Below, one piece after another: positions 1 to 37,132 of a stretch of DNA of 38,300 bases. The translations under genes and the position numbers were made by a program. Source of the stretch: a virus. Numbering within the stretch: the first letter of the stretch is position 1; every line of letters begins with the position of its first letter. The notes under the pieces are model-generated. The model was not told where the DNA came from. It saw only the letters and a list, made by a program, of their open reading frames with translations, and did not search any database. The DNA lies in UHGV virus genome UHGV-0186551; one strand, written 5' to 3'.

Positions 1-14
1 TAGTATAAAAAAGC
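1..14. repeat. att core (attR copy), tagtataaaaaagc; window begins inside the core
   Basis: Identical to 37207..37220; is the reverse complement of the lambda core GCTTTTTTATACTAA (first base presumably just left of position 1). Confidence 0.85.
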
Positions 15-160
15 TGAACGTGAAACACTAAAAACCATTAATATCAATGCATTACAATAAATTTAGCTTAAAAAATAGACTATATAATACTGCAAAACGC
101 AACATATGCAGTCACTATGAATCAACTACTTAGATAGTATTAGTGACCTGTAACAGAGCA
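15..160. other. attR P-arm (Int arm-site/IHF/Xis binding region, phage side of attR)
   Basis: Sequence following the core recalls the lambda attP P-arm in reverse complement (recollection, not aligned); individual protein sites not mapped. Confidence 0.55.
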
Positions 161-201
161 TTAGCGCAAGGTGATTTTTGTCTTCTTGCGCTAATTTTTT
201 G
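161..201 (+). terminator. sib/tI-like hairpin with T-run (int retroregulation element in the free phage)
   Basis: ttagcgcaag ... cttgcgctaa inverted repeat followed by tttttt. Confidence 0.5.
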
Positions 202-290
202 TCAACATACTGGGTTATCTGAATTTACAGCCATGCTCAGTATCTCGATAAGCGCAGAGAAATGATGCAGTGGTGGGCGGACTGGCTTGA

Positions 291-314
291 TGAAAAGGTG
301 GAGTGAACCACCTT
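291..314 (-). terminator. Possible terminator hairpin downstream of the 218-aa gene
   Basis: aaggtgg/ccacctt stem with adjacent A-run on + (U-run on - transcript). Confidence 0.3.
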
Positions 315-422
315 AACCACTATCGAAGAGCACAAAACCTTGCAATCAAGTGCAAAGCTTTGTGTGTTATTTTTTATGGCTATATAAATTATATACTGCC
401 AGTGCTATCTAACATTTAAATA

Positions 423-1079
423 TTATGAACTATAATAAGTCCTAATCTTTACAGATGAAAGCATAATCTTCCAAGCTTGATCGCTACCCAACCACTCATC
501 GTTGGTTGGTTCATTATCACCAGATACTACATAAGTATCTGGCATATCAAAGTCTATATTGCAAAGGTCTTCTCCTTTGCGCTCCTTAAAAATAAGAAGA
601 TCTATTTTTGTTGTTGGGAATTTTTTATCCAAAACACTTCTCAGTTTATACACAGCATCTCGTTCTGCATTCAATCTAACGAGTAAAACACGTTCCGACT
701 CATTGATTTTCTCTATAAATCTTTTTCTTCTCGCCTTTATTTTTTTCATCATATTAAACAAGCAGACTTCAATACCTTGTTTTTCATAGTCATCAATAAG
801 AATATCGTGAATACTTCGAAATCCAGTCGCTGTATCTGTGATATCAATACAATTTTTAAATCTGCCATTAATTTTTATATTTTCAGGCAAGAAAAGGTGG
901 TCGCACCCCTTATTAATTATTTTTGTAACTTGAGGTAGTTTTTGAGAGGCAAACCAATCAAATGGTCCACTAAATGTCCTCAACCCAAATCGCTTTAACC
1001 TTCCTGCTGGTTGACATTTTTTACCAAGGCTTGCTATAAAATCATACTCTCCACAAGGAAGAAAAAGGCCTTTATTCAT
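423..1079 (-). CDS. Hypothetical protein, 218 aa; N-terminal motif SLGxxC...PFDW reminiscent of DUF1796 (putative papain-like fold); AT-rich accessory gene
   Basis: ORF track 423..1115; start moved to ATG at 1079 (MNKGLF...) which has an AGGAAA ribosome-binding site; AT-rich composition unlike the rest of the prophage. Confidence 0.7.
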   Translation of the reverse strand: MNKGLFLPCGEYDFIASLGKKCQPAGRLKRFGLRTFSGPFDWFASQKLPQVTKIINKGCDHLFLPENIKINGRFKNCIDITDTATGFRSIHDILIDDYEKQGIEVCLFNMMKKIKARRKRFIEKINESERVLLVRLNAERDAVYKLRSVLDKKFPTTKIDLLIFKERKGEDLCNIDFDMPDTYVVSGDNEPTNDEWLGSDQAWKIMLSSVKIRTYYSS

Positions 1080-1196
1080 ATGATTTTCCTTACATTTTAT
1101 GACGACAAAAATCATAACATTGCCTTATTAATCAGTCAAACAGTTAACAAATGCAAACAAACAAGTAAGCACATTGTTGATAATTTGTTTATTTTT

Positions 1197-1811
1197 ATGT
1201 TTTTGTTATCTATACCATTTTTTTCATTTGCTTCTGATACAAACAAAACGCCACCATATCGCATGAGGGAGTCGATGTTTGAGTTATTAAAGGAGCAAAG
1301 GGATATTGTTATGCTTGGCGATAGCATAACCGCGCGAGGAGAGTGGAATGAGCTTCTTCCTAGTTTATCTGTAGCAAATAGGGGCATTGGGGGAGATGAA
1401 GTTAAATTTATGAAAAGAAGGATTGATTCTATATTTTTATTAAAGCCCAAATATGTATTCATTATGGGCGGAACAAATGATTTCAGAAGAAAAAGAAGTG
1501 TTGATGATGTGGTTCGTGACTATAAGCATATAATAAAAAAACTACACAAACACAGAATTAATGTATTCATTCAGTCCACCCTTTACGTGTCAAGAGAAAG
1601 CAGGTTAAATGACAACATAAAAATATTAAAATTAAACAATGCAATAAATAACTATTGCTCTGTATCTAATTATTGTCGTTTCGTAGATCTTAACGTGCAC
1701 ATGGCAAAAGATAGAAAAATACTAGCTAAGTATAGCGATGATGGAGTCCATCTAAATGGTAATGGGTATTTAATGTGGGCGTCAATCATATACCCTTTAA
1801 TTAAAAAATAA
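1197..1811 (+). CDS. SGNH/GDSL-family hydrolase (esterase/lipase-like) with hydrophobic N-terminus, probably exported or membrane-anchored
   Basis: Motifs GDSIT, GIGGD, GGTNDF, DGVHLN in SGNH block order; N-terminal MFLLSIPFFSFA; start uncertain (ATG 1080, TTG 1185 or ATG 1197; track start 1011). Confidence 0.75.
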   Translation: MFLLSIPFFSFASDTNKTPPYRMRESMFELLKEQRDIVMLGDSITARGEWNELLPSLSVANRGIGGDEVKFMKRRIDSIFLLKPKYVFIMGGTNDFRRKRSVDDVVRDYKHIIKKLHKHRINVFIQSTLYVSRESRLNDNIKILKLNNAINNYCSVSNYCRFVDLNVHMAKDRKILAKYSDDGVHLNGNGYLMWASIIYPLIKK

Positions 1812-1817
1812 GAATAG

Positions 1818-1849
1818 TAAAAAACCATCTCATTATGAGGTGGTTTTTT
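1818..1849. terminator. Bidirectional rho-independent terminator between convergent hydrolase and tailspike genes
   Basis: Hairpin aaaaaccatctca / tgaggtggttttttt with A-run before and T-run after. Confidence 0.6.
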
Positions 1850-1930
1850 ATATAGAATAAAGCAATAGAGGTTTATTTTATTTGTTTATCATGGCTTAAT
1901 GCACTAGCACTTTAATTGAAAAAACTATAT

Positions 1931-4330
1931 TTATTTTAGTATCCATCCGGTATTTCCTGTTCCTGTTTTTTTTTGATACCAATCACCATTATAATCAATG
2001 TACATTGACCCCTTAGGTGCGGTCACAACACCCTCAGGTGAACCGGAGCCTCTATAAATTCCAAAGAGAGTTGTACCTCTTACTTTCTCGTATGCAAACA
2101 ACAAACCATCTGAAGCCCTTCTGATACGCAACGGTTCGTGCTCTGAGTCCGATGCAAATGTAGTGGTGCCGTTTGAATCTGTTTCCCTGGAAAAACTTCC
2201 ATCTGTTCTTGTTCCTTCAATGATCGAATTTGGGTAGTTTGGATCATCAGATGAATGTAACCTAATATAGGAACTATTTGATGCTGATACCCCCCTACCC
2301 CTTAAAATCAATCCCTTAAATGATGACGTAAATAGTGCCTGGATTGAGCCATAAACAGTGTTATCACTACCGTTTTGCTGATCGTATATTCTTAGTCTTG
2401 AGCTATTATCATACATAATAGCGTTGAAGTACTCACCAAGACGTTCGCTAAATGCAACAATATTAAAAGCATTGCGCCATCTAAATGATATATTTCGCCC
2501 GCTTTCTCCGGCATCTACACCTGCATTACTTGAAGCATTGGTTATGCCAGAATTAAGGTTCTGCTCATCGTTGTTACCAGTCGCTGGTCGTATAGAGTAA
2601 ATTGTCTTTTTCTCAAGAGAATAGCTACTTCCCCATCCATAATCTGTATCAGGACTCCAGTCTCCAGAATTTGCATCCTTGGTTGTTTCCACCCAATAAG
2701 AGCCATTTGATGGAGGAACACCAATTATTCCAGAAGTCTCAATAGATGATGCAGCCCATCTTCTTCCACGCCAGTTTACAATATTAGCTCCTGCCCTCCA
2801 TGTTTCTATGCAGCTTATAATTATTTCTTCGCCACGAATAGTTAAACCTTCCGGCTCGAATCTGGCTGGATTCCCAAGAGTTGGATGGTTAAGCAACCCA
2901 TCGCGCCCATATTGCGACCTTGCATCATCGATATCTAATTTTCTTAGTAAATTACCTGTTAAATCATATGTAAAGATATGATGCTTTCCAAAAGCATTAG
3001 TGCCTCCCTTAAGTATATGTATATATCTTCCATCAGACGCAATACCTTGTACAGAGTAAGCGCCTTCAGAAGGTGAGTCGCTCATTTCCCAAACAAACAT
3101 GGGGTTTGCTAATGTTTTATCTTCAAGTTTATCAATTGATATTTTATCGTATATAAATACAGTTCGTTTAGCGGCATCACTCTTTGGTGTATTAACCATT
3201 ATTAAAAGACGACCGTCAGAAGAAATGGCAATTCCTGCACGATTGTAATCTTGAAATGGGTGACCGCTACCAGTAATCCCCCATACATTATAACTTTTTA
3301 CGTCAGACTGAGTTGTTCCTGCCCCTCGCCAAGTTATTTTACTAAACCCTTTGCCTGCAGACTCCCCATCTTCACCTGAATTGGTTACACTTGATGTATA
3401 TAAATATACTTGACCATTCTCCACCATGGCAGAAAGATCAAATCCGTGCCCAAGGTTTAATTCTGGAGAATACGCAACATGGTTTACTACCCTTCCATCA
3501 TCATAAAGATTAAACTCAACAATACGAACTCTTTCTTTATCCGACCAGGTTGGCCCAACAGGCCGTTGTGTGACAAATAGTTTTTCAATGCCATTAACAC
3601 GGCAATATGCGATCCCCTGTAACGCATTTCTGGCATTAGGATAAATTTCTGTGTTTGTTTCTCCCTGAAAACCAAAAAAAGGTTCCATCATTTTTCTCTG
3701 CGCAAGTTTGTCAGTTTCAAGTAGACGAGAAACGGAAATAAGAGAGCCATTATCTGCAACAATCCTCCCAATACCTCGAGCAGAAGATACATCAACTTCG
3801 AGAGTATTTACTGCAAAATCGCCATCAGGAACAAACATTCTATAGCCTGCGTTAGAGAATGCCTCAGTAGCGTCAGTTATTCCATCACTGATAGCCCCCC
3901 AACCGCGAACATCTTTGTCATCACGCCATCGTGCAATCTGCAATTCGGGATATTTTTTAGCACCATCCGGGTCTTCTAACTGCTGCCGTAGCTGATCCGG
4001 GTCATACTTCAGCACATTAGGGAAATAGAACTGCTGAGTGCCATATGCATCATATACAGCCATAGAATGGCCTTGAACAGTTACGAATTTGGCAATCTGC
4101 CCGTTATATACCGGATATCCAGCAGCGTTAATGATGATTGGCTGCGAAACAGGAACATGAGAGCCGTCTTCGTTCTCTACATAAACCTGAATCTGGTTTT
4201 CTGGACTTACCGGGTCAGTGTCAATTTTTCCGATATAAATTTTGCCGTTGGCTACTGCTTTAAAAGAACGCGCCATAGTGAAGAGTTGCGAAGGCATACT
4301 CACTACAACATTGGCTGTAATGTCTGTCAT
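1931..4330 (-). CDS. Tailspike, 799 aa: P22-type N-terminal head-binding domain joined to a divergent receptor-binding domain
   Basis: First ~115 aa ([11 protein letters not shown]...[11 protein letters not shown]...LKYDPDQ) match P22 tailspike N-terminus from memory; remainder unrecognised. Confidence 0.9.
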
Positions 4331-4494: not shown

Positions 4495-6492
4495 CTATTC
4501 TGACAACGAATCAGACTTAGCCCCCTGCGTCAGAGCGTTAATTGCCTTTTGTGCCTGCTGCATTGCTTTCTCAAAGGCTGTTGATCCGCGTGGGGTGTTT
4601 GCCATTCTGAGCATTGCATTTCTGAATGGTTCGCTCTCATAGGCGCGAGTAAGAAGTCCGTAGCTTACTGCTGCGCCAGTTGTCGCCGGGTTCATTGCCG
4701 TCCCATACCCGATAATGAACGGGATGGTTTGCTGCCCTGTGGGTGTTGTTACTGCCGCTTTTGCTGCCTGCTGAGTGGACTGAAGGTAATTTTTCAATCC
4801 TTTCAGATAAGCAGCATCCTGCCCCTTAAATGTGATGCCAGTCTGGTTTTGCAGGATGTTAAGCTGCCGAAGGAACTGGTCAGGGGATCCGCCAGATTTC
4901 TCCATCGCCTTTCCAATGATGCCATTGCGCATTTGCGCCCTGCCAACACGACCAACTGAGTTATACAGCGTCTTAATTTCCGATTTGTTCTTGCTGAATA
5001 GCATGTTGTTGACAATTTCCGGTGTCAGGTCGCCTTTCATGAGAACATTCTTCAGCCTGGTATTCTTTAGTTTCGCCGCTTCGTCAGCGTAGACGGCATT
5101 GGCCTGCTGATATTTACGGAGAGTATCGTTGCCAAGATTATGACCAATGGCACCATTGATATCGTCGGTCATCGCCTTGTAAACGCGCTGAATGGCAGCA
5201 TCGGAACGGTTTGGTAACACTGGTCGCTCACCCTTCACGTCCATTCTGAACTGACTGCGCAGGTCGCTTAATTGCTTCAAATCCAGATTTACCGGACCAT
5301 CAGGGCCAGCATTGCGAACAAGCTCATCACGATATGACTGAAGTTTTGAAATTGTCTCGTTATCAGCCACCTTACCAAGCTTCTTCAGATTAGATATCTC
5401 AGTATCAATCTGCTGAATTGCTCGCGCAGGCTGGATATTGACTCCCGCCATTGCATTCTGAACCTGCTCAAGACGGTTCCCTGCAGCACGACGAATTCCT
5501 GATGTTTTCGCTTTAAGGCTGTCAATAACAACAGCTGGATCATACTCACCGAATTTATCAGCAAATCTCTGCACCAACTGGCTTCTCGCTTCCTGTTGCG
5601 TTGCTCTCATTCCGCTTGTGCCAGCCAGGGGGATATTTTCTGCTGTCGTTTGCGCCATTTTTCCGACGCGGGAAGTAGGCTGTAACAGGTCTGTGGTGTG
5701 CAGAGGCACTCCTTCACGCTCTGCAAATCTGATAGCTTGCTGCGCTTCTGGCGCAATAGCACCACGAACTCCACGATAAGCAGCACCTAATCCACGTCCG
5801 GCAGCGTTAATAGCACCGCCAGCCAGCACACCAACGCCCAAATCGGTGGCGAGTGCTTCCGCATCATCTTTCGCACTATTTGCAGCAAGTGATCCAACTG
5901 CGTTTTCTGCTAGAAGGCGAGTTGCCCCATGAGCAATTCGACCAGCAAGTGTTGGTGCCTGTGCTGCCGCTCTCTCAACGCCAGCAGGAGTGAGGTAAGG
6001 CAATGCTTCAGCAAATACCCTTCCCTCTGTCGTTTGTGGAGTCAGCGCGCCTTGCTGAAGGCCAAAGTCCTGCTCTAATCCCTGCGTTGTTACACGTGGC
6101 GCTGGTTGATATGTACCATCGCCAATGCCGAGTTTACCGCCAGCCCAAGCCGCCGCGCTTGTTACAGCATCGGCAACTGATGCAGGTATGTTTGCCACGT
6201 TCACGCCAGCCTGCACCAGTCCGCGACCAGTCTCTTTTACTGCTTCGCCAAGATCAGACATAAATCCACTTTGCTGTGGTTGTTGCTGTGCTACTGGTTG
6301 CTGTGTCTCCACTTGCTGCACATATGGCAATGGATAGGAAGCATAGAAAGCTTGCTTAGCCTGCTCTGCATTTTCTCCGGCTTGCGGGGCAACGACTTCA
6401 TTGAAGTATTGCTCCTGAGCCTGCGCTTTTTGTTCTGGTGCTAACGCCTGATACTGTGGAGAGGCGATAACATCTTTCCATGCTTTAGCCAT
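4495..6492 (-). CDS. Ejection/internal virion protein, P22 gp16-like
   Basis: 665-aa ORF in the gp16 position after gp20; Q/A-rich. Confidence 0.8.
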   Translation of the reverse strand: MAKAWKDVIASPQYQALAPEQKAQAQEQYFNEVVAPQAGENAEQAKQAFYASYPLPYVQQVETQQPVAQQQPQQSGFMSDLGEAVKETGRGLVQAGVNVANIPASVADAVTSAAAWAGGKLGIGDGTYQPAPRVTTQGLEQDFGLQQGALTPQTTEGRVFAEALPYLTPAGVERAAAQAPTLAGRIAHGATRLLAENAVGSLAANSAKDDAEALATDLGVGVLAGGAINAAGRGLGAAYRGVRGAIAPEAQQAIRFAEREGVPLHTTDLLQPTSRVGKMAQTTAENIPLAGTSGMRATQQEARSQLVQRFADKFGEYDPAVVIDSLKAKTSGIRRAAGNRLEQVQNAMAGVNIQPARAIQQIDTEISNLKKLGKVADNETISKLQSYRDELVRNAGPDGPVNLDLKQLSDLRSQFRMDVKGERPVLPNRSDAAIQRVYKAMTDDINGAIGHNLGNDTLRKYQQANAVYADEAAKLKNTRLKNVLMKGDLTPEIVNNMLFSKNKSEIKTLYNSVGRVGRAQMRNGIIGKAMEKSGGSPDQFLRQLNILQNQTGITFKGQDAAYLKGLKNYLQSTQQAAKAAVTTPTGQQTIPFIIGYGTAMNPATTGAAVSYGLLTRAYESEPFRNAMLRMANTPRGSTAFEKAMQQAQKAINALTQGAKSDSLSE

Positions 6493-27936: not shown

Positions 27937-28084
27937 GTTTCACTCCTGCTTTGGCTAGTCTGTAAACACCAACAAGGCGCTCTGCGAACGCCCTGTTATT
28001 TGCTGCGGCTACCACTAATCCCTCAGGTGAATCAGGGTGTCGAATCTCTTCTTTTTCCTGGTATTTCTTACGACGTTTTGTCAT
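27923..28084 (-). CDS. Possible small basic protein, 53 aa (MTKRRKKYQEKEE...)
   Basis: ATG at 28084 with AGGAG ribosome-binding site; overlaps O start by 14 nt; hand-translated. Confidence 0.3.
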   Translation of the reverse strand: MTKRRKKYQEKEEIRHPDSPEGLVVAAANNRAFAERLVGVYRLAKAGVKHGRR

Positions 28085-28119
28085 AATTACTCCTGTGGAT
28101 TGATACAGTCTTTCTACAA

Positions 28120-28398
28120 TCAGGCCTCAAAACTGTTGCCGCAGTCTTGAGGCTTTTCTTTTGTCAGCACCATGGCTACTTTCTTTGCCAGCTCCGCTAA
28201 TTCCTCGTCTTCAACACCCCACTCCAGCACAGCCAGAAGCATGGCCATCTTTGGGATAAAGCTGTCTTTCCATCGCGAAATTTGCGATTCATTGATCCCT
28301 AATGCATCAGCAACCTTTCGCTGACCACGTACAGCAATTCGATTTAGGATGTTGCTTGTAATTGCATTCGCTTTCTTGCGAGTACTTGTAAGTTGCAT
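28120..28398 (-). CDS. cII: Lysogeny establishment activator CII
   Basis: SQISRWK...MLLAVLEWGV motif as in lambda CII; start moved to ATG at 28398 (track start 28485). Confidence 0.85.
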   Translation of the reverse strand: MQLTSTRKKANAITSNILNRIAVRGQRKVADALGINESQISRWKDSFIPKMAMLLAVLEWGVEDEELAELAKKVAMVLTKEKPQDCGNSFEA

Positions 28399-28457
28399 AT
28401 GTAAGTATTTACTTAACAAATAAGAAGTTATGCGCATCAACTTATGCGCGTTGTATT

Positions 28458-28500
28458 CCCGCATTTCGGCGGGAATGAGGACCATGACTGTTAAAGAGCG
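28458..28500 (-). promoter_or_regulatory. nutR (boxA cgctctttaa, boxB hairpin cccgccgaaatgcggg)
   Basis: boxA/boxB read on the - strand between cro and cII; boxB identical to the nutL copy. Confidence 0.75.
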
Positions 28501-28506
28501 GTGTTA

Positions 28507-28701
28507 CTATTTGTTTTTCTTGTTGCTTGGGAAAGGACGAACTTCCTCTCCAATCACACTGCCATCAGGCTTTACCGTAACCATGATGTTACGGCCTGCC
28601 AGAATGGCCTTGCTGATAGCGCACTGGATTACACCAAAGTCACTGGCTGCTTTAGCCTGTCCATGGATTTTGGCGTAATCGGCAAGTGTCATTCGAATCA
28701 T
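28507..28701 (-). CDS. cro: Cro repressor
   Basis: TL.DYA...GQ.K.A.D.GV.Q.AI.KA...GR.I......DGSV..EEV.PFPSNKK as in lambda Cro; ATG at 28701 (track start 28707 is GTG). Confidence 0.9.
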
Positions 28702-28730
28702 ATGCACTCTCCGTTATTAACCATGAACAA

Positions 28731-28799
28731 AGAATACTACAGGTATTCAAAGCAATCAATACTCAGGGTATTTTTAGTTTAAGTACCTTAGCTATTAGA
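28731..28799. promoter_or_regulatory. oR/pR/pRM region: operators near gaatactacaggtattc (28732..28748), aatactcagggtatt (28758..28772), degenerate third (28783..28799); pR -10 28731..28736 and -35 28754..28759 on - strand
   Basis: Inverted-repeat operators sharing consensus with oL sites; pR -35 TTGATT, 17-bp spacer, -10 TATTCT; probable leaderless cI transcript. Confidence 0.65.
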
Positions 28800-28807
28800 A
28801 TTAAGCT

Positions 28808-29524
28808 ATGGAAAATAAAAAATCACTGACGACAGAACAGCTCGAAGACGCTAAGCGGCTTAAGGCTTTGTATGAGTCAAAAAAGAAAGAATTGGGAATA
28901 ACCCAATACTCAATCGCTGATGAACTGGGTATCACCCAAGGAGCGGTAGGGCATTATCTTAATGGCAGAAACGCGCTAAACGTTGAGGTTGCATCTGGTT
29001 TTGCACGATTGTTGCAAGTCTCAATTGCTGATTTTAGCCAGTCAATTGCTGCCAAGGTTGCAGAACAGGCAGAAAGCCTTAAGAGCGATGCCAACGTAAG
29101 GTATGCAGGGGAATACAGAGCAGGAAAGAGGTATCCGGTGTTAAGCAGTATCCAGGCTGGCTCGTGGTGTGAAGCATGCGAACCATACACCATTAAAGAC
29201 ATAGATGTTTGGCTTGAGTCTGACGCGCATATTCAAGGTAATGCGTTCTGGCTTAAAGTGGAAGGTGATTCAATGACGGCACCGGTTGGGTTAAGCATTC
29301 CAGAGGGAACATTCGTTCTTTTCGATACCGGAAGGGAGGCGATCAACGGCAGCTTGGTCATAGCAAAACTTTCTGACTCTAACGAAGCAACATTCAAGAA
29401 GCTGATAATCGACGGCGGAAATAAATACCTCAAGGGACTTAATCCTGCATGGCCTCTCGTGCCAATCAATGGAAACTGCAAGATTATAGGCGTTGCAATT
29501 GAGACAAAACTAAGGCTGGTTTGA
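28808..29524 (+). CDS. cI: CI repressor (N-terminal helix-turn-helix, C-terminal S24 LexA-like autocleavage domain)
   Basis: 238 aa; LTTEQLEDAKRLKALYESKKKELG... and AFWL.VEGDSMTAP as in lambda CI. Confidence 0.9.
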   Translation: MENKKSLTTEQLEDAKRLKALYESKKKELGITQYSIADELGITQGAVGHYLNGRNALNVEVASGFARLLQVSIADFSQSIAAKVAEQAESLKSDANVRYAGEYRAGKRYPVLSSIQAGSWCEACEPYTIKDIDVWLESDAHIQGNAFWLKVEGDSMTAPVGLSIPEGTFVLFDTGREAINGSLVIAKLSDSNEATFKKLIIDGGNKYLKGLNPAWPLVPINGNCKIIGVAIETKLRLV

Positions 29525-29541
29525 TCACGCAAGGGGCGATT

Positions 29542-29910
29542 ATGGTTGGAACCGCTATAGCAAGCTTTTTGGGGATGTTGGCAATCTCAACAATTTACGG
29601 CTTAGCGCATGCTTTTATTGCGAAATCTCTATCAGAAAAAATAAGCCAGGCTTGGGCGCATAGATCTGCTCGTTTCATGATTCTAGTGGTCATAGCAATA
29701 CAAGGGATATCTGCATTTATCCTCTATGGATCAAGCTTATACCTGTTGTATCAAGGCGCGACATTTACGCCTTACACCAGTGATTACGGAACTCTATACG
29801 ATGGTAGTGAAGACATCTCTATGGCTTGGATCGTCTTTGGTTTATCTATGGCCGTGTCTGTTGTAGCAGACATCATTAAGGTAATTCTCGTCTTAACCTT
29901 CGCTGACTAA
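29542..29910 (+). CDS. Multi-pass membrane protein co-transcribed with cI (rex-position cargo)
   Basis: ATG at 29542 with AAGGGG ribosome-binding site, 18 nt after cI stop; about four hydrophobic segments; track start 29521. Confidence 0.7.
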   Translation: MVGTAIASFLGMLAISTIYGLAHAFIAKSLSEKISQAWAHRSARFMILVVIAIQGISAFILYGSSLYLLYQGATFTPYTSDYGTLYDGSEDISMAWIVFGLSMAVSVVADIIKVILVLTFAD

Positions 29911-29999
29911 CCCATAATCCCGGCAGCAATAGCTATCGGGATCCACTTCACATATCCCGCATAAAAAGCACTGAACAAGCAGACACCGAAAAAAAATAA

Positions 30000-30085
30000 A
30001 TATCCTTTGTATTCATTTGCTTATCATTATTTCACCAAAAATAAATACCTTGGGTATTTACACAATAAAATACCTACAGTATTCT
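30000..30085 (+). promoter_or_regulatory. oL/pL: operators atatcctttgtattc (30000..30014), aataccttgggtatt (30044..30058), aatacctacagtatt (30069..30083); pL -35 TTTACA 30057..30062, -10 TATTCT 30080..30085
   Basis: Same operator consensus as oR; promoter geometry mirrors pR. Confidence 0.65.
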
Positions 30086-32090: not shown

Positions 32091-32225
32091 ATGATGCACT
32101 TTCAGCTCGCGGGTAGCGGCGTCATGTCCGCTTTCTACCCGCACGAATCTGAATTATCACGCCGAGTTAAACAATTAATTAGAGCAGCAAAGAAACAACT
32201 GGAGGCGTTATGCGCAATGAAATAG
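32091..32225 (+). CDS. CIII-like small protein (putative FtsH inhibitor)
   Basis: 44 aa; AAGGAG ribosome-binding site; pattern ...AG...ES.LSRR..QL resembles lambda CIII. Confidence 0.5.
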   Translation: MMHFQLAGSGVMSAFYPHESELSRRVKQLIRAAKKQLEALCAMK

Positions 32226-32362
32226 CCATTAATCACCAGATGCTTCGTGCGGCACAAAACAAAGCAGTAATAGCCAGATTTATTGGTGATTCAAAAATGT
32301 GGATTGAAGCAAATAAAGCGATGAAATCAGCTATCAACCTTCCGTGGTATCGCAGGAAATGA
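32210..32362 (+). CDS. Kil-like small protein, 50 aa
   Basis: Hand-translated; GGAGG ribosome-binding site; position after the cIII-like gene; resemblance to lambda Kil only vaguely recalled. Confidence 0.4.
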   Translation: MRNEIAINHQMLRAAQNKAVIARFIGDSKMWIEANKAMKSAINLPWYRRK

Positions 32363-32443
32363 GTTTTACAGATAACTGGTCAGACGAAGAATTCATTCGT
32401 CAGATGAACAAAATGCTCAATCAGCACAAAAAACAGGAGAAAG

Positions 32444-32755
32444 ATGATGATTCTGACTCTGAATGATAAGCGTGAAATATCGCAAATCATCGCAAGTTTT
32501 ACTGATGAAGATTACGAACGAATCAACAGTGAAGTTGATCGCCTCTGCAAACGTTGCGACCCAATAAGCGAAATGCTTCGCTCATATAAACCAGATGAAC
32601 ACACTAAGGACGCTATCGACTGGCTGGAAGATGATGACTGTGACTATCAGGAAAAAGCCGCTGAATGGTTCTGGGATGCAATAACCGAAAGAGTTAAGGC
32701 TGAATATGCCTTCTCAATATTCAAACGCAGACACATTTTTGGAGAAGCTGCATGA
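32444..32755 (+). CDS. Hypothetical acidic protein, 103 aa, directly upstream of recT
   Basis: Strong AGGAG ribosome-binding site; stop overlaps recT start. Confidence 0.7.
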   Translation: MMILTLNDKREISQIIASFTDEDYERINSEVDRLCKRCDPISEMLRSYKPDEHTKDAIDWLEDDDCDYQEKAAEWFWDAITERVKAEYAFSIFKRRHIFGEAA

Positions 32756-33663
32756 GCAATATCGTTGAATTCGTTAAACAGCAGGAGCAGTTATTCTGCG
32801 GAGCATTGACTGAACAGACGGTGACATGGGCTAAGGAAAGCCAGTTTGCAATTCAGTATTTCCAGAAAAATGATTACCTGGCTAAAACAGCACTGGCAAA
32901 TCCAACCAGCGCACAGAACGCCATCATCAATGTTGCGGCGATCGGCATCACCTTAAACCCGGCTAGCAAACTGGCTTATCTGGTTCCGCGCGACGGCATG
33001 GTGTGCCTTGATATCAGTTATATGGGATTGCTCCATATTGCAATGGAGTCTGGTGTTATCTCATGGGGTCAGGCAAAACTTGTTCATGCTAACGATACCT
33101 ATGAGTCAAACGGGCTTGATAAAGCACCAACCCATAAATACAACGCCTTCGGTGATCGTGGTGATATCGTTGGCGTTTACTGCACAGTTAAGACGCCAGC
33201 AGGTGATTATCTAACGGAAGAGATGAGTCTTGCTGAAATTGAGGCTGTAAGGAAAACAAGCAAGGCGGCATTCAGCGATAAAGGACCATGGGTAAATCAC
33301 TGGAATGAGATGGCGCGAAAGACGGTCGTAAAGCGTGCAAGCAAGTATTGGCCTAAGGCATCACGTCTTGATAGTGCTATTCACGTACTAAACGAAGAAG
33401 AAGGTGTGTGGACTGAACCAGTTATGCCGCACAAATCAGAGGAAGATATCCGCGAAGATGAACGGAAACGCCAGCAGGAAAGAACGGATAAAGCACAACT
33501 TCTTTGTGATGAAATGGCTCAGGCTGAAAACATGGATGATTTGAAGCGATATTTTGCAGAAGCATATCGCCTGACATCTGGAATGAAATTGCAGCAGAAC
33601 GTACAAGCCATTTACGCAGAATGCAAAGCGAAACTGGAGGTTGCCAGTGAGCAAACTGTATGA
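32752..33663 (+). CDS. recT: RecT-family single-strand annealing recombinase
   Basis: 303 aa; GPWVNHWNEMARKTVVKRASKYWP matches the RecT signature GPWVTHWEEMAKKTAIRRLFKYLP. Confidence 0.85.
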   Translation: MSNIVEFVKQQEQLFCGALTEQTVTWAKESQFAIQYFQKNDYLAKTALANPTSAQNAIINVAAIGITLNPASKLAYLVPRDGMVCLDISYMGLLHIAMESGVISWGQAKLVHANDTYESNGLDKAPTHKYNAFGDRGDIVGVYCTVKTPAGDYLTEEMSLAEIEAVRKTSKAAFSDKGPWVNHWNEMARKTVVKRASKYWPKASRLDSAIHVLNEEEGVWTEPVMPHKSEEDIREDERKRQQERTDKAQLLCDEMAQAENMDDLKRYFAEAYRLTSGMKLQQNVQAIYAECKAKLEVASEQTV

Positions 33664-34129
33664 AATTGCCAATGAATACGCAAAATTGATGGATTCAGAT
33701 TTAGAACCAGAGATGATTGCTGACACAATAGAAGGCATGGAAGGAGAATTTACCGATAAAATAGAGCAACTTCTTTCCGTCATTAAAAATGAATCTGGTT
33801 ATGCCGAACGCCTCAAGGAAGAGGCAAAGTCACTGAATGAGCGAGCCGCAGTAATTCAAAATAAGATTGACAGCATCAAATCATATATAGCGTCATCGCT
33901 TGAAATGGTTGGCAAGAAAAAGATTCGAGCAGGTATTCACCAGGTAACAATCCGCAAACCGTCAGAAACTGTAGAAATCATCGACTCAAGCGCCCTTCCT
34001 CCTGAATACGTTGAGTTTGAAACGACAATTAAAGCCGACAAGTTGGCAATCAAGCACCAACTAAAAGCAGGAATAAATATCCCAGGCGCTCAACTCAAGG
34101 TTGGGAAACCTTCACTTCTTATCAAATAA
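33647..34129 (+). CDS. Gp157-like recombination accessory protein
   Basis: GTG start with GGAGG ribosome-binding site; resembles the Sipho_Gp157 family that commonly accompanies phage recombinases. Confidence 0.6.
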   Translation: MSKLYEIANEYAKLMDSDLEPEMIADTIEGMEGEFTDKIEQLLSVIKNESGYAERLKEEAKSLNERAAVIQNKIDSIKSYIASSLEMVGKKKIRAGIHQVTIRKPSETVEIIDSSALPPEYVEFETTIKADKLAIKHQLKAGINIPGAQLKVGKPSLLIK

Positions 34130-34140
34130 CGGTATCGACT

Positions 34141-34455
34141 ATGAAAAAGACTCCATGGGAGAAATGGGAAGTCGATTTCTTGCGCGAGGTAGCGGCGACA
34201 ATGCCAGTTGAAGTTATCGCAGAAAAACTGGAAAGGACTGAAAAAGCAGTAATGGCGAAAGCAACAAGGATTGGAGCTGACATTGTTAGCCGACTTCGTG
34301 GAAGACGCTGGACAAGAGCCGAAGTATCACTTTTCGGTAAGTTCTCCGCAGAAGAAATAGCAATTGCAACCTGCCGCTCAATTTATTCAGTAAGAGCTAT
34401 GCGATACAAGCTAAAAAAACTCGATGAAGAAAGAGCAGGCATACAAATAAATTAA
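34141..34455 (+). CDS. Hypothetical protein, 104 aa, two internal Trp-containing repeats (possible DNA-binding)
   Basis: ORF track; repeat pattern seen in translation. Confidence 0.6.
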   Translation: MKKTPWEKWEVDFLREVAATMPVEVIAEKLERTEKAVMAKATRIGADIVSRLRGRRWTRAEVSLFGKFSAEEIAIATCRSIYSVRAMRYKLKKLDEERAGIQIN

Positions 34456-35865: not shown

Positions 35866-36084
35866 ATGTACTTGACACTTCAGGAGTGGAACGCACGCCA
35901 GCGACGCCCAAGAAGCCTTGAAACAGTTCGTCGATGGGTACGCGAGTGCAGGATATTCCCTCCTCCTGTTAAGGACGGAAGAGAGTATTTGTTCCACGAA
36001 TCAGCGGTAAAGGTTGACTTAAATCGACCAGTAACAGGTAGCCTTTTGAAGAGGATCAGAAATGGGAAGAAGGCGAAGTCATGA
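35866..36084 (+). CDS. xis: Excisionase Xis
   Basis: 72 aa, MYLTLQEWNARQRRPRSLETVRRWVRECRIFPPPVKDGREYLFHESAVKVDLNRPVTG.LLKRIRNGKKAKS as in lambda Xis. Confidence 0.95.
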   Translation: MYLTLQEWNARQRRPRSLETVRRWVRECRIFPPPVKDGREYLFHESAVKVDLNRPVTGSLLKRIRNGKKAKS

Positions 36085-37132
36085 GCGCCGGGATTTACCC
36101 CCTAATCTTTATATAAGAAACAATGGATATTACTGCTACAGGGACCCAAGAACGGGTAAAGAGTTTGGATTAGGCCGAGACAGGAGGATAGCAATCACTG
36201 AAGCAATACAGGCCAACATTGAGTTATTTTCAGGACACAAACACAAGCCTCTGACAGCGAGAATCAACAGTGATAATTCTGTTACGTTACATTCATGGCT
36301 TGATCGCTACGAAAAAATCCTCGCCAGCAGAGGAATCAAGCAGAAGACACTTATAAATTACATGAGCAAAATTAAAGCAATAAGGAGGGGTCTGCCTGAT
36401 GCTCCACTTGAAGACATCACCACAAAAGAAATTGCGGCAATGCTCAATGGATACATAGACGAGGGCAAGGCGGCATCAGCCAAGTTAATCAGATCAACAC
36501 TGAGCGATGCATTCCGAGAGGCAATAGCTGAAGGCCATATAACAACAAACCCGGTCGCTGCCACTCGCGCAGCAAAATCAGAGGTAAGGAGATCAAGGCT
36601 TACGGCTGACGAATACCTGAAAATTTATCAAGCAGCAGAATCATCACCATGTTGGTTAAGACTTGCAATGGAACTGGCTGTTGTTACCGGGCAGCGAGTT
36701 GGTGATTTATGCGAAATGAAGTGGTCTGATATCGTAGATGGATATCTTTATGTCGAGCAAAGCAAAACAGGCGTAAAAATTGCCATCCCTACAACATTGC
36801 ATGTTGATGCTCTCGGGATATCAATGAAGGAAACACTTGATAAATGCAAAGAGATTCTTGGCGGAGAAACCATAATTGCATCTACTCGTCGTGAACCGCT
36901 TTCATCCGGCACAGTATCAAGGTATTTTATGCGCGCACGAAAAGCATCAGGTCTTTCCTTCGAAGGGGATCCGCCTACCTTTCACGAGTTGCGCAGTTTG
37001 TCTGCAAGACTCTATGAGAAGCAGATAAGCGATAAATTTGCTCAACATCTTCTCGGGCATAAGTCGGACACCATGGCATCACAGTATCGTGATGACAGAG
37101 GCAGGGAGTGGGACAAAATTGAAATCAAATAA
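36062..37132 (+). CDS. int: Tyrosine integrase Int
   Basis: 356 aa matching lambda Int as recalled; overlaps xis 3' end as in lambda. Confidence 0.95.
   Translation: MGRRRSHERRDLPPNLYIRNNGYYCYRDPRTGKEFGLGRDRRIAITEAIQANIELFSGHKHKPLTARINSDNSVTLHSWLDRYEKILASRGIKQKTLINYMSKIKAIRRGLPDAPLEDITTKEIAAMLNGYIDEGKAASAKLIRSTLSDAFREAIAEGHITTNPVAATRAAKSEVRRSRLTADEYLKIYQAAESSPCWLRLAMELAVVTGQRVGDLCEMKWSDIVDGYLYVEQSKTGVKIAIPTTLHVDALGISMKETLDKCKEILGGETIIASTRREPLSSGTVSRYFMRARKASGLSFEGDPPTFHELRSLSARLYEKQISDKFAQHLLGHKSDTMASQYRDDRGREWDKIEIK

Follow-up and report, generated by a model that had tools for sequence, protein, structure and literature searches.

A conserved acidic protein in the gam position of lambdoid prophages is a candidate diverged relative of the lambda Gam nuclease inhibitor

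The stretch of DNA analysed here (hereafter, the window; 38,300 nt) is a lambdoid prophage of Escherichia coli. An early-left operon of the pL type occupies the plus strand of its right-hand part. Nearly identical DNA is found in phages Kapi1, 683R2, HK140, mEpX1 and Gally. A drop in GC content (0.31–0.45) together with a change of sign in GC skew at about 29 kb (window 28000–30000) indicates a switch between leftward and rightward blocks of prophage genes, and the low-GC left end (1–2 kb with GC 0.32–0.34, within window 1–4000) may represent a moron or non-phage DNA. The features of the operon and of the loci compared with it are summarized in Table 1. The stop codon of kil is coupled to the start of a small acidic ORF, orf35, by an ATGA overlap, and orf35 is followed by the subject of this study, orf103, and by genes for a RecT annealase and a protein of the Sipho_Gp157 family.

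Table 1. Features of the early-left operon in the window and of related loci
Feature	Position	Strand	Evidence and remarks
kil (Lambda_Kil)	32210–32362	+	PF06301 E 2e-19, phrog_2055; left border of slot
orf35, small acidic ORF	32359–32466	+	35 aa from ATG 32359; 40 aa from GTG 32344 in the ORF list
orf103	32444–32755	+	acidic, all-helical, predicted lambda-Gam fold; candidate RecBCD inhibitor; probable start 32447
recT, single-strand annealing protein	32752–33663	+	PF03837 E 2e-32, phrog_148 E 1.5e-92
Sipho_Gp157 / MuGam-type gene	33641–34129	+	PF05565 E 2.5e-38, full profile; phrog_253 'Mu Gam-like end protection'
104-aa HTH-like gene	34141–34455	+	phrog_11492, phrog_323, weak HTH_12 match; right border of module
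DUF5405, Ead/Ea22-DUF551, xis, lambda-type int	int at 36062–37132		in this order downstream of the 104-aa gene
phi80 Agt/Mog and its homologues	L007:2265–3236; L018/L056/L074:~4658–5098; phi80 L010:9844–10812		absent from the window
SEN22_31	L002:5215–5784		189 aa; no Pfam match

The borders of two neighbouring genes require comment. For the Gp157 gene, the sequence GGAGG at 33636–40 is situated 6 nt before a GTG at 33647, and for this reason that codon is favoured as the probable start; the resulting protein of 160 aa has the same length as its homologues. Annotations of this start disagree, and in the record of Gally the gene begins at the ATG that corresponds to 33689 (146 aa). In the form read from TTG 33641, the match to the Pfam profile sets in at residue 5. 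The 104-aa gene is labelled 'Anti-RecBCD protein 1 (Abc1-like)' in Gally and 'D5-like transcriptional regulator' in PHROGs. The Abc1-like label could not be reproduced, as P22 Abc1 gave no match to this gene by BLASTP or tblastn.

The initial annotation described an acidic protein of 103 aa directly upstream of RecT and a Gp157-like partner and overlapping the start of recT, and all of this is borne out. Read from 32444, orf103 contains 25 D+E against 15 K+R, corresponding to a pI of 4.6 and a net charge of -10, the two downstream genes match PF03837 and PF05565, and the overlap is an ATGA at 32752–55. The start is likely to be the second ATG, at 32447, giving 102 aa, because AGGAG lies 7 nt upstream at 32435–39, homologues begin with M-[IRNK]-L, and the PHROG profile covers residues 2–103. 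The Shine-Dalgarno sequence of recT (GGAG, 32741–44) sits within the final orf103 codons, which accounts for part of the conserved G-E-A-A at the C-terminus, and this coupling to the first gene of the recombination (Rec) module is conserved. That orf103 is a real gene is evident from its match to phrog_3486 (E 6e-59), from some 35 full-length homologues of conserved length and from a model with a pLDDT of 91. The function of phrog_3486 is not assigned, and the label is 'hypothetical' in every record examined.

No Pfam family was matched by orf103. A word-indexed search returned only 28 close clusters; when 1.84 billion representatives were searched exhaustively with a profile, 55 matches were obtained, about 35 of them full-length (97–110 aa; counted as clusters at 50% identity), with identities down to 24%. 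Acidity is a constant feature, with net charges from -4 to -14 (median -9) in all 38 aligned members, and D or E makes up at least 60% of 14 alignment columns, seven of which fall within residues 8–32. The taxonomic spread is narrow, being confined to phages of Enterobacterales. Of 5426 complete E. coli genomes, 265 (~5%) contain the cassette of orf35 and orf103, annotated there as 'hypothetical protein'. Three chimeric relatives (P0023, P0009 and P0003) join the N-terminal 50–80 residues of orf103 to unrelated C-termini, one of them with DUF551, which suggests recombination breakpoints or frameshifts within the gene in some prophages. A literature search found no paper on the family, and a survey of the Rec modules of lambdoid phages published in 2025 does not mention it in the main text (PMC12315714).

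In all cases that could be read, members of the family are positioned between kil and the first gene of the recombination module, immediately before that gene, whatever the type of the module. The cases comprise the window, 80 IMG/VR loci, six phages that span five types of module, and distant relatives. The place at the head of the module, between kil/cIII and the annealase gene, is the one that defines the Gam class by position, and the parallel with lambda drawn in the initial annotation is exact, the lambda order being cIII-kil-gam-bet. Its parallel with the P22 Abc proteins does not hold, since abc1 and abc2 come after erf in P22 and the slot before erf is taken by arf. The RecT+Gp157 module of the window recurs in Pantoea phage PA-1 and in three metagenomic or genomic relatives at 25–33% identity, in one of which an extra small gene is interposed after the orf103 relative. 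A RecT and YqaJ-type exonuclease module follows in Cronobacter ENT47670 and Erwinia Midgardsormr38, and a RecE+RecT module, with RecE first, in Erwinia phiEt88. In Salmonella SEN22, a copy 94% identical to orf103 precedes a RecE-like nuclease and a 189-aa protein, and there is no RecT. None of these last four loci encodes Gp157 or another known inhibitor. The order orf35-orf103-recT-gp157 was found in 80 of 80 IMG/VR loci, although the scan of viral contigs yielded only loci at least 97% identical, and one of genome contigs yielded none, so that these context statistics are of low diversity. Homologues of lambda Gam, phi80 GamL and P22 Abc2 were absent from all 89 loci with a member of the orf103 family, a sample made up mostly of close relatives.

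The slot can be seen to exchange its contents when the window is compared with two other phages. Phage Dewey has kil, recT, gp157 and the 104-aa gene in common with the window at 93–96% DNA identity, but replaces orf35 and orf103 by an 80-aa ORF and a PF06064 Gam. The breakpoints correspond to window positions 32365, to which the homology across kil extends, and 32750. With SEN22, homology is limited to 32359–32755 (96.5%) and the 104-aa gene, which is thus kept beside different recombinase genes, and the flanks differ. Together, the two comparisons indicate that the slot is a cassette swapped at gene borders, with true Gam among its alternative contents.

Several other proteins near the slot were observed in the course of these comparisons. 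The orf35 gene moves with orf103 as one cassette and is present in 83 loci; in ENT47670 an equivalent separates kil from the orf103 homologue, and none was found in PA-1, Midgardsormr38 or locus L092. It matches phrog_17766 (E 4e-15, from residue 6) and phrog_2123, which is labelled 'recombinase'. Its segment 'SDEEFI' resembles the start of P22 Arf (MQHEFSDEEFI...), the occupant of the same place in P22, but the resemblance is weak (BLASTP E 0.2). SEN22_31, encoded after the RecE-like nuclease at the usual place of an annealase, may be an unrecognised single-strand annealing protein. Finally, Midgardsormr38 and three IMG/VR loci carry, immediately before cIII/kil-orf103, a homologue of phi80 Agt/Mog (~38% identity over the first ~150 aa); in the record of phi80, Agt/Mog is described as 'anti-toxin for Gam / modifier of Gam'.

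The conservation of context bears on two alternative accounts of the gene. The first takes orf103 to be a moron or filler with a function unrelated to DNA ends, which owes its location to mosaic recombination at gene borders. A functional annotation was found nowhere and the taxonomic range is narrow, as this account would have it, but the position is kept across ~25–95% identity and five module architectures, as is the coupling to the Rec gene that comes first, and the predicted fold and charge (described below) are Gam-like; we regard it as highly improbable. The second takes orf103 to be an accessory factor of phage recombination that would assist in loading RecT or work with host SSB, as Arf does for Erf, with the Gam-like fold being a coincidence or a reused scaffold. 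The translational coupling to recT is in keeping with such a role, as are the persistence of the RecT+Gp157 partnership in relatives at 25–33% identity, the occurrence of a RecT-family protein in every module type seen except that of SEN22, and the place of Arf between kil and the annealase gene in P22. Against it, the SEN22 copy has no RecT beside it, the next gene in phiEt88 is recE rather than recT, and orf103 has no similarity to Arf. It would also leave unexplained both the exact replacement by Gam in Dewey and the structural match to GamS, and we consider it distinctly unlikely.

The structure of the orf103 monomer was predicted from an alignment of 38 sequences with a pLDDT of 91.4 and a pTM of 0.78. 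The model comprises helices at residues 6–17, 21–35, 40–47, 54–64 and 66–102. GamS is its single best structural match, with a moderate structural score and 15% identity in the structural alignment, and the predicted helical fold can be superposed on GamS over most of the chain, as is characteristic of the Gam structural class. The two proteins are also alike in size and charge, with 102–103 aa and a net charge of -10 for orf103 and 98 aa and -10 for GamS. A Foldseek search of BFVD did not recover Gam, and the top match was an unnamed protein of 107 aa (E 0.03, TM 0.59); such misses are common with short helical proteins, and the search was uninformative.

In sequence, the link to Gam is confined to a short region. 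BLASTP against the Gam of Dewey gave a 23-residue match to orf103, and hhalign aligned orf103 residues 53–80 with GamS 57–84 (28 columns; P 4.6e-4). The hhalign P value improved as diversity was added to the alignments (1.9e-3, 8.6e-4 and 4.6e-4), with probabilities of 14%, 24% and 33%. Widening the Gam profile brought little gain, taking the probability from 24% to 33%, as the Gam family is narrow and only phiES15 (36% identity) added diversity to it. When the columns of the Gam alignment were shuffled, none of 200 shuffles reached the real score of 23.7 (shuffles: mean 11.2, sd 2.3, maximum 19.0). The column shuffle alone was used as the null; a shuffle of 7-column blocks was discarded because it often leaves the motif intact. 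Within the aligned region, the best-conserved orf103 columns (A57, L61, D65, Y68, Q69 and E70) align with the Gam invariants A61, A65, D69, F72, Q73 and E74. The shared motif suggests divergent homology of orf103 and Gam, though at a level under the usual thresholds. Neither orf103 nor any of the 38 members matched PF06064 at E up to 1, no Gam chain was found when PDB sequences were searched with phmmer or hmmsearch, and the orf103 family HMM gave GamS a score of 10 bits. The best PDB matches in the phmmer search and two profile searches, to TipA, S15 and BamD (E at least 0.02), were judged to be noise.

The suggestion in the initial annotation that orf103 is an unrecognised anti-RecBCD protein is partly supported, on computational grounds, by the predicted Gam fold, the motif, the position and the replacement by Gam in Dewey. 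Membership of PF06064 does not stand.

Four types of anti-RecBCD protein have been described in lambdoid phages, namely Gam, GamL, Abc2 and MuGam, and 43 of 246 lambdoid Rec modules surveyed were without any of them (Zheng, Casjens, Davidson, Amundsen and Smith 2025, PMC12315714). [quoted passage not shown] In comparison to lambda Gam (PF06064; PDB codes: 2UUZ and, with RecBCD, 5MBV), orf103 has no significant overall sequence similarity (hhalign probability of 33% at most), and the single long N-terminal helix of Gam is predicted as two in orf103, with a break at residues 18–20. The C-terminal helix of the orf103 model is longer than that of Gam. Its last residues are a conserved E-[AV]-A, encoded where the following gene has its Shine-Dalgarno sequence and start.

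The GamL protein of phi80 is predicted to have a Gam-like fold without sequence similarity to Gam (PMC12315714). Like orf103, GamL (PHI80_39, 93 aa, net charge -7) is acidic, and its gene has the same place, immediately before a recT whose product is 59% identical to the RecT of the window; an upstream Mog-like gene is a further point in common with four loci of the orf103 family. GamL begins with MNAYLTYDRIE as does lambda Gam, however, and orf103 lacks this N-terminus. A GamL-type sequence for orf103 was rejected, as BLASTP gave E of at least 1 and the score against the family HMM was 4 bits.

P22 Abc2 (PF11043) and Abc1 resemble orf103 in being small proteins of a Rec module, that of P22-like phages, and Abc2 targets RecBCD through RecC. 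Abc2 modifies RecBCD and does not block it (PMC9836394). It is basic (pI 8.9, net charge +3) and encoded downstream of erf, whereas orf103 is acidic and encoded upstream of recT. No match of orf103 to Anti-RecBCD_p2 was found in Pfam, and none to Abc2 by BLASTP at E up to 10. BLASTP likewise gave no similarity to Abc1 or Arf. The protein gp5.9 of T7, at 52 aa, is small and acidic like orf103 but unrelated in fold and size, and searches of PDB sequences detected no similarity between the two. It inhibits RecBCD as a DNA mimic (PMC9836394).

The remaining type is represented in the window itself. The Mu Gam/Sipho_Gp157 protein (PF05565) is encoded two genes downstream of orf103 in the same module, outside the Gam slot, and this type of protein binds DNA ends and not the enzyme. 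MuGam is counted as the anti-RecBCD component of HK140-type modules, in which a type-4 annealase is accompanied by MuGam and by no nuclease or SSB (PMC12315714). Sipho_Gp157 co-occurs with true Gam in Dewey, and from this pairing with the same RecT+Gp157 it follows that the functions of Gam and Gp157 are not redundant.

The presence of Gp157 leads to a further alternative, in which Gp157 deals with RecBCD and orf103 is an acidic, DNA-mimic-like inhibitor of some other host or defence protein, such as SbcCD alone, a restriction or anti-phage nuclease, or a sensor of DNA ends. The strong acidity of the family is conserved as such a role would lead one to expect, MuGam-type proteins have already been credited with blocking RecBCD (PMC12315714, PMC12407980), GamL is annotated in the phi80 record as an inhibitor of SbcCD as well as of RecBCD, and counter-defence genes are abundant in early-left regions (10.1101/2023.04.06.535777). 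The Gam slot would then stay empty in ENT47670, Midgardsormr38, phiEt88 and SEN22, however, and this alternative sits poorly with the combination of true Gam and the same RecT+Gp157 in Dewey and with a motif that spans the invariant residues of Gam. On this evidence it appears unlikely.

At the chromosomal density of E. coli, some eight Chi sites would be expected in the window, and about 1.2 at random. The Chi octamer, GCTGGTGG, does not occur in the 38.3 kb on either strand. Lambdoid phages that encode an inhibitor are mostly without Chi (PMC12315714), and the absence of Chi from the window fits this pattern, as weak evidence.

The Gam slot and the predicted Gam fold together make orf103 probably an unrecognised relative of the Gam inhibitor of host nucleases. 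On balance we favour a diverged Gam-fold protein that, in the early phase of lytic growth, would block RecBCD and perhaps SbcCD, and within the Gam fold orf103 is most likely a third sequence type of inhibitor beside lambda Gam and phi80 GamL. As part of the pL operon it would be an early gene, with its translation coupled to that of recT. If the protein acts as Gam does, it would most likely be a dimer, acidic and helical, lodged in the DNA-binding site of the host's RecBCD and possibly in that of SbcCD. Inhibition of RecBCD in this manner would protect the linear ends of phage DNA and the intermediates of replication and recombination, and recombination would be left to the phage's own RecT and Gp157. 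The main caveats on this Gam-type reading of the model are the split N-terminal helix, the moderate structural score and the MuGam-type gene in the same module.

More speculatively, and as a possibility that we put forward tentatively, orf103 could represent a third, unannotated family of Gam-fold RecBCD inhibitors which fills an otherwise empty inhibitor slot in ENT47670, Midgardsormr38, phiEt88 and SEN22. In the nuclease-free RecT+Gp157 modules it would be combined with a MuGam-type end-binding protein, in a two-layer protection composed of an enzyme blocker and an end cap. On this reading, the broken N-terminal helix may mean that RecBCD is bound in a manner unlike that of lambda Gam, or that the range of targets has shifted, for example to SbcCD or to other end-processing or defence nucleases.

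Bacterial immunity and repair converge on RecBCD, and its phage inhibitors are both tools, as with Gam in recombineering and base editors, and triggers of guard-type defence systems, of which retron Ec48 and P2 Old respond to Gam. The mechanism proposed here is not a surprising one, and the orf103 family is chiefly of use to specialists. If orf103 is indeed a Gam-fold inhibitor, some survey assignments of Rec modules would change, and the family would offer a measure of how far the sequence of Gam can drift with fold, charge and position retained, as well as a compact new candidate inhibitor to try in recombineering systems based on RecT. Should orf103 prove not to be an inhibitor, it would still be a conserved partner of RecT modules to which a function is worth assigning.
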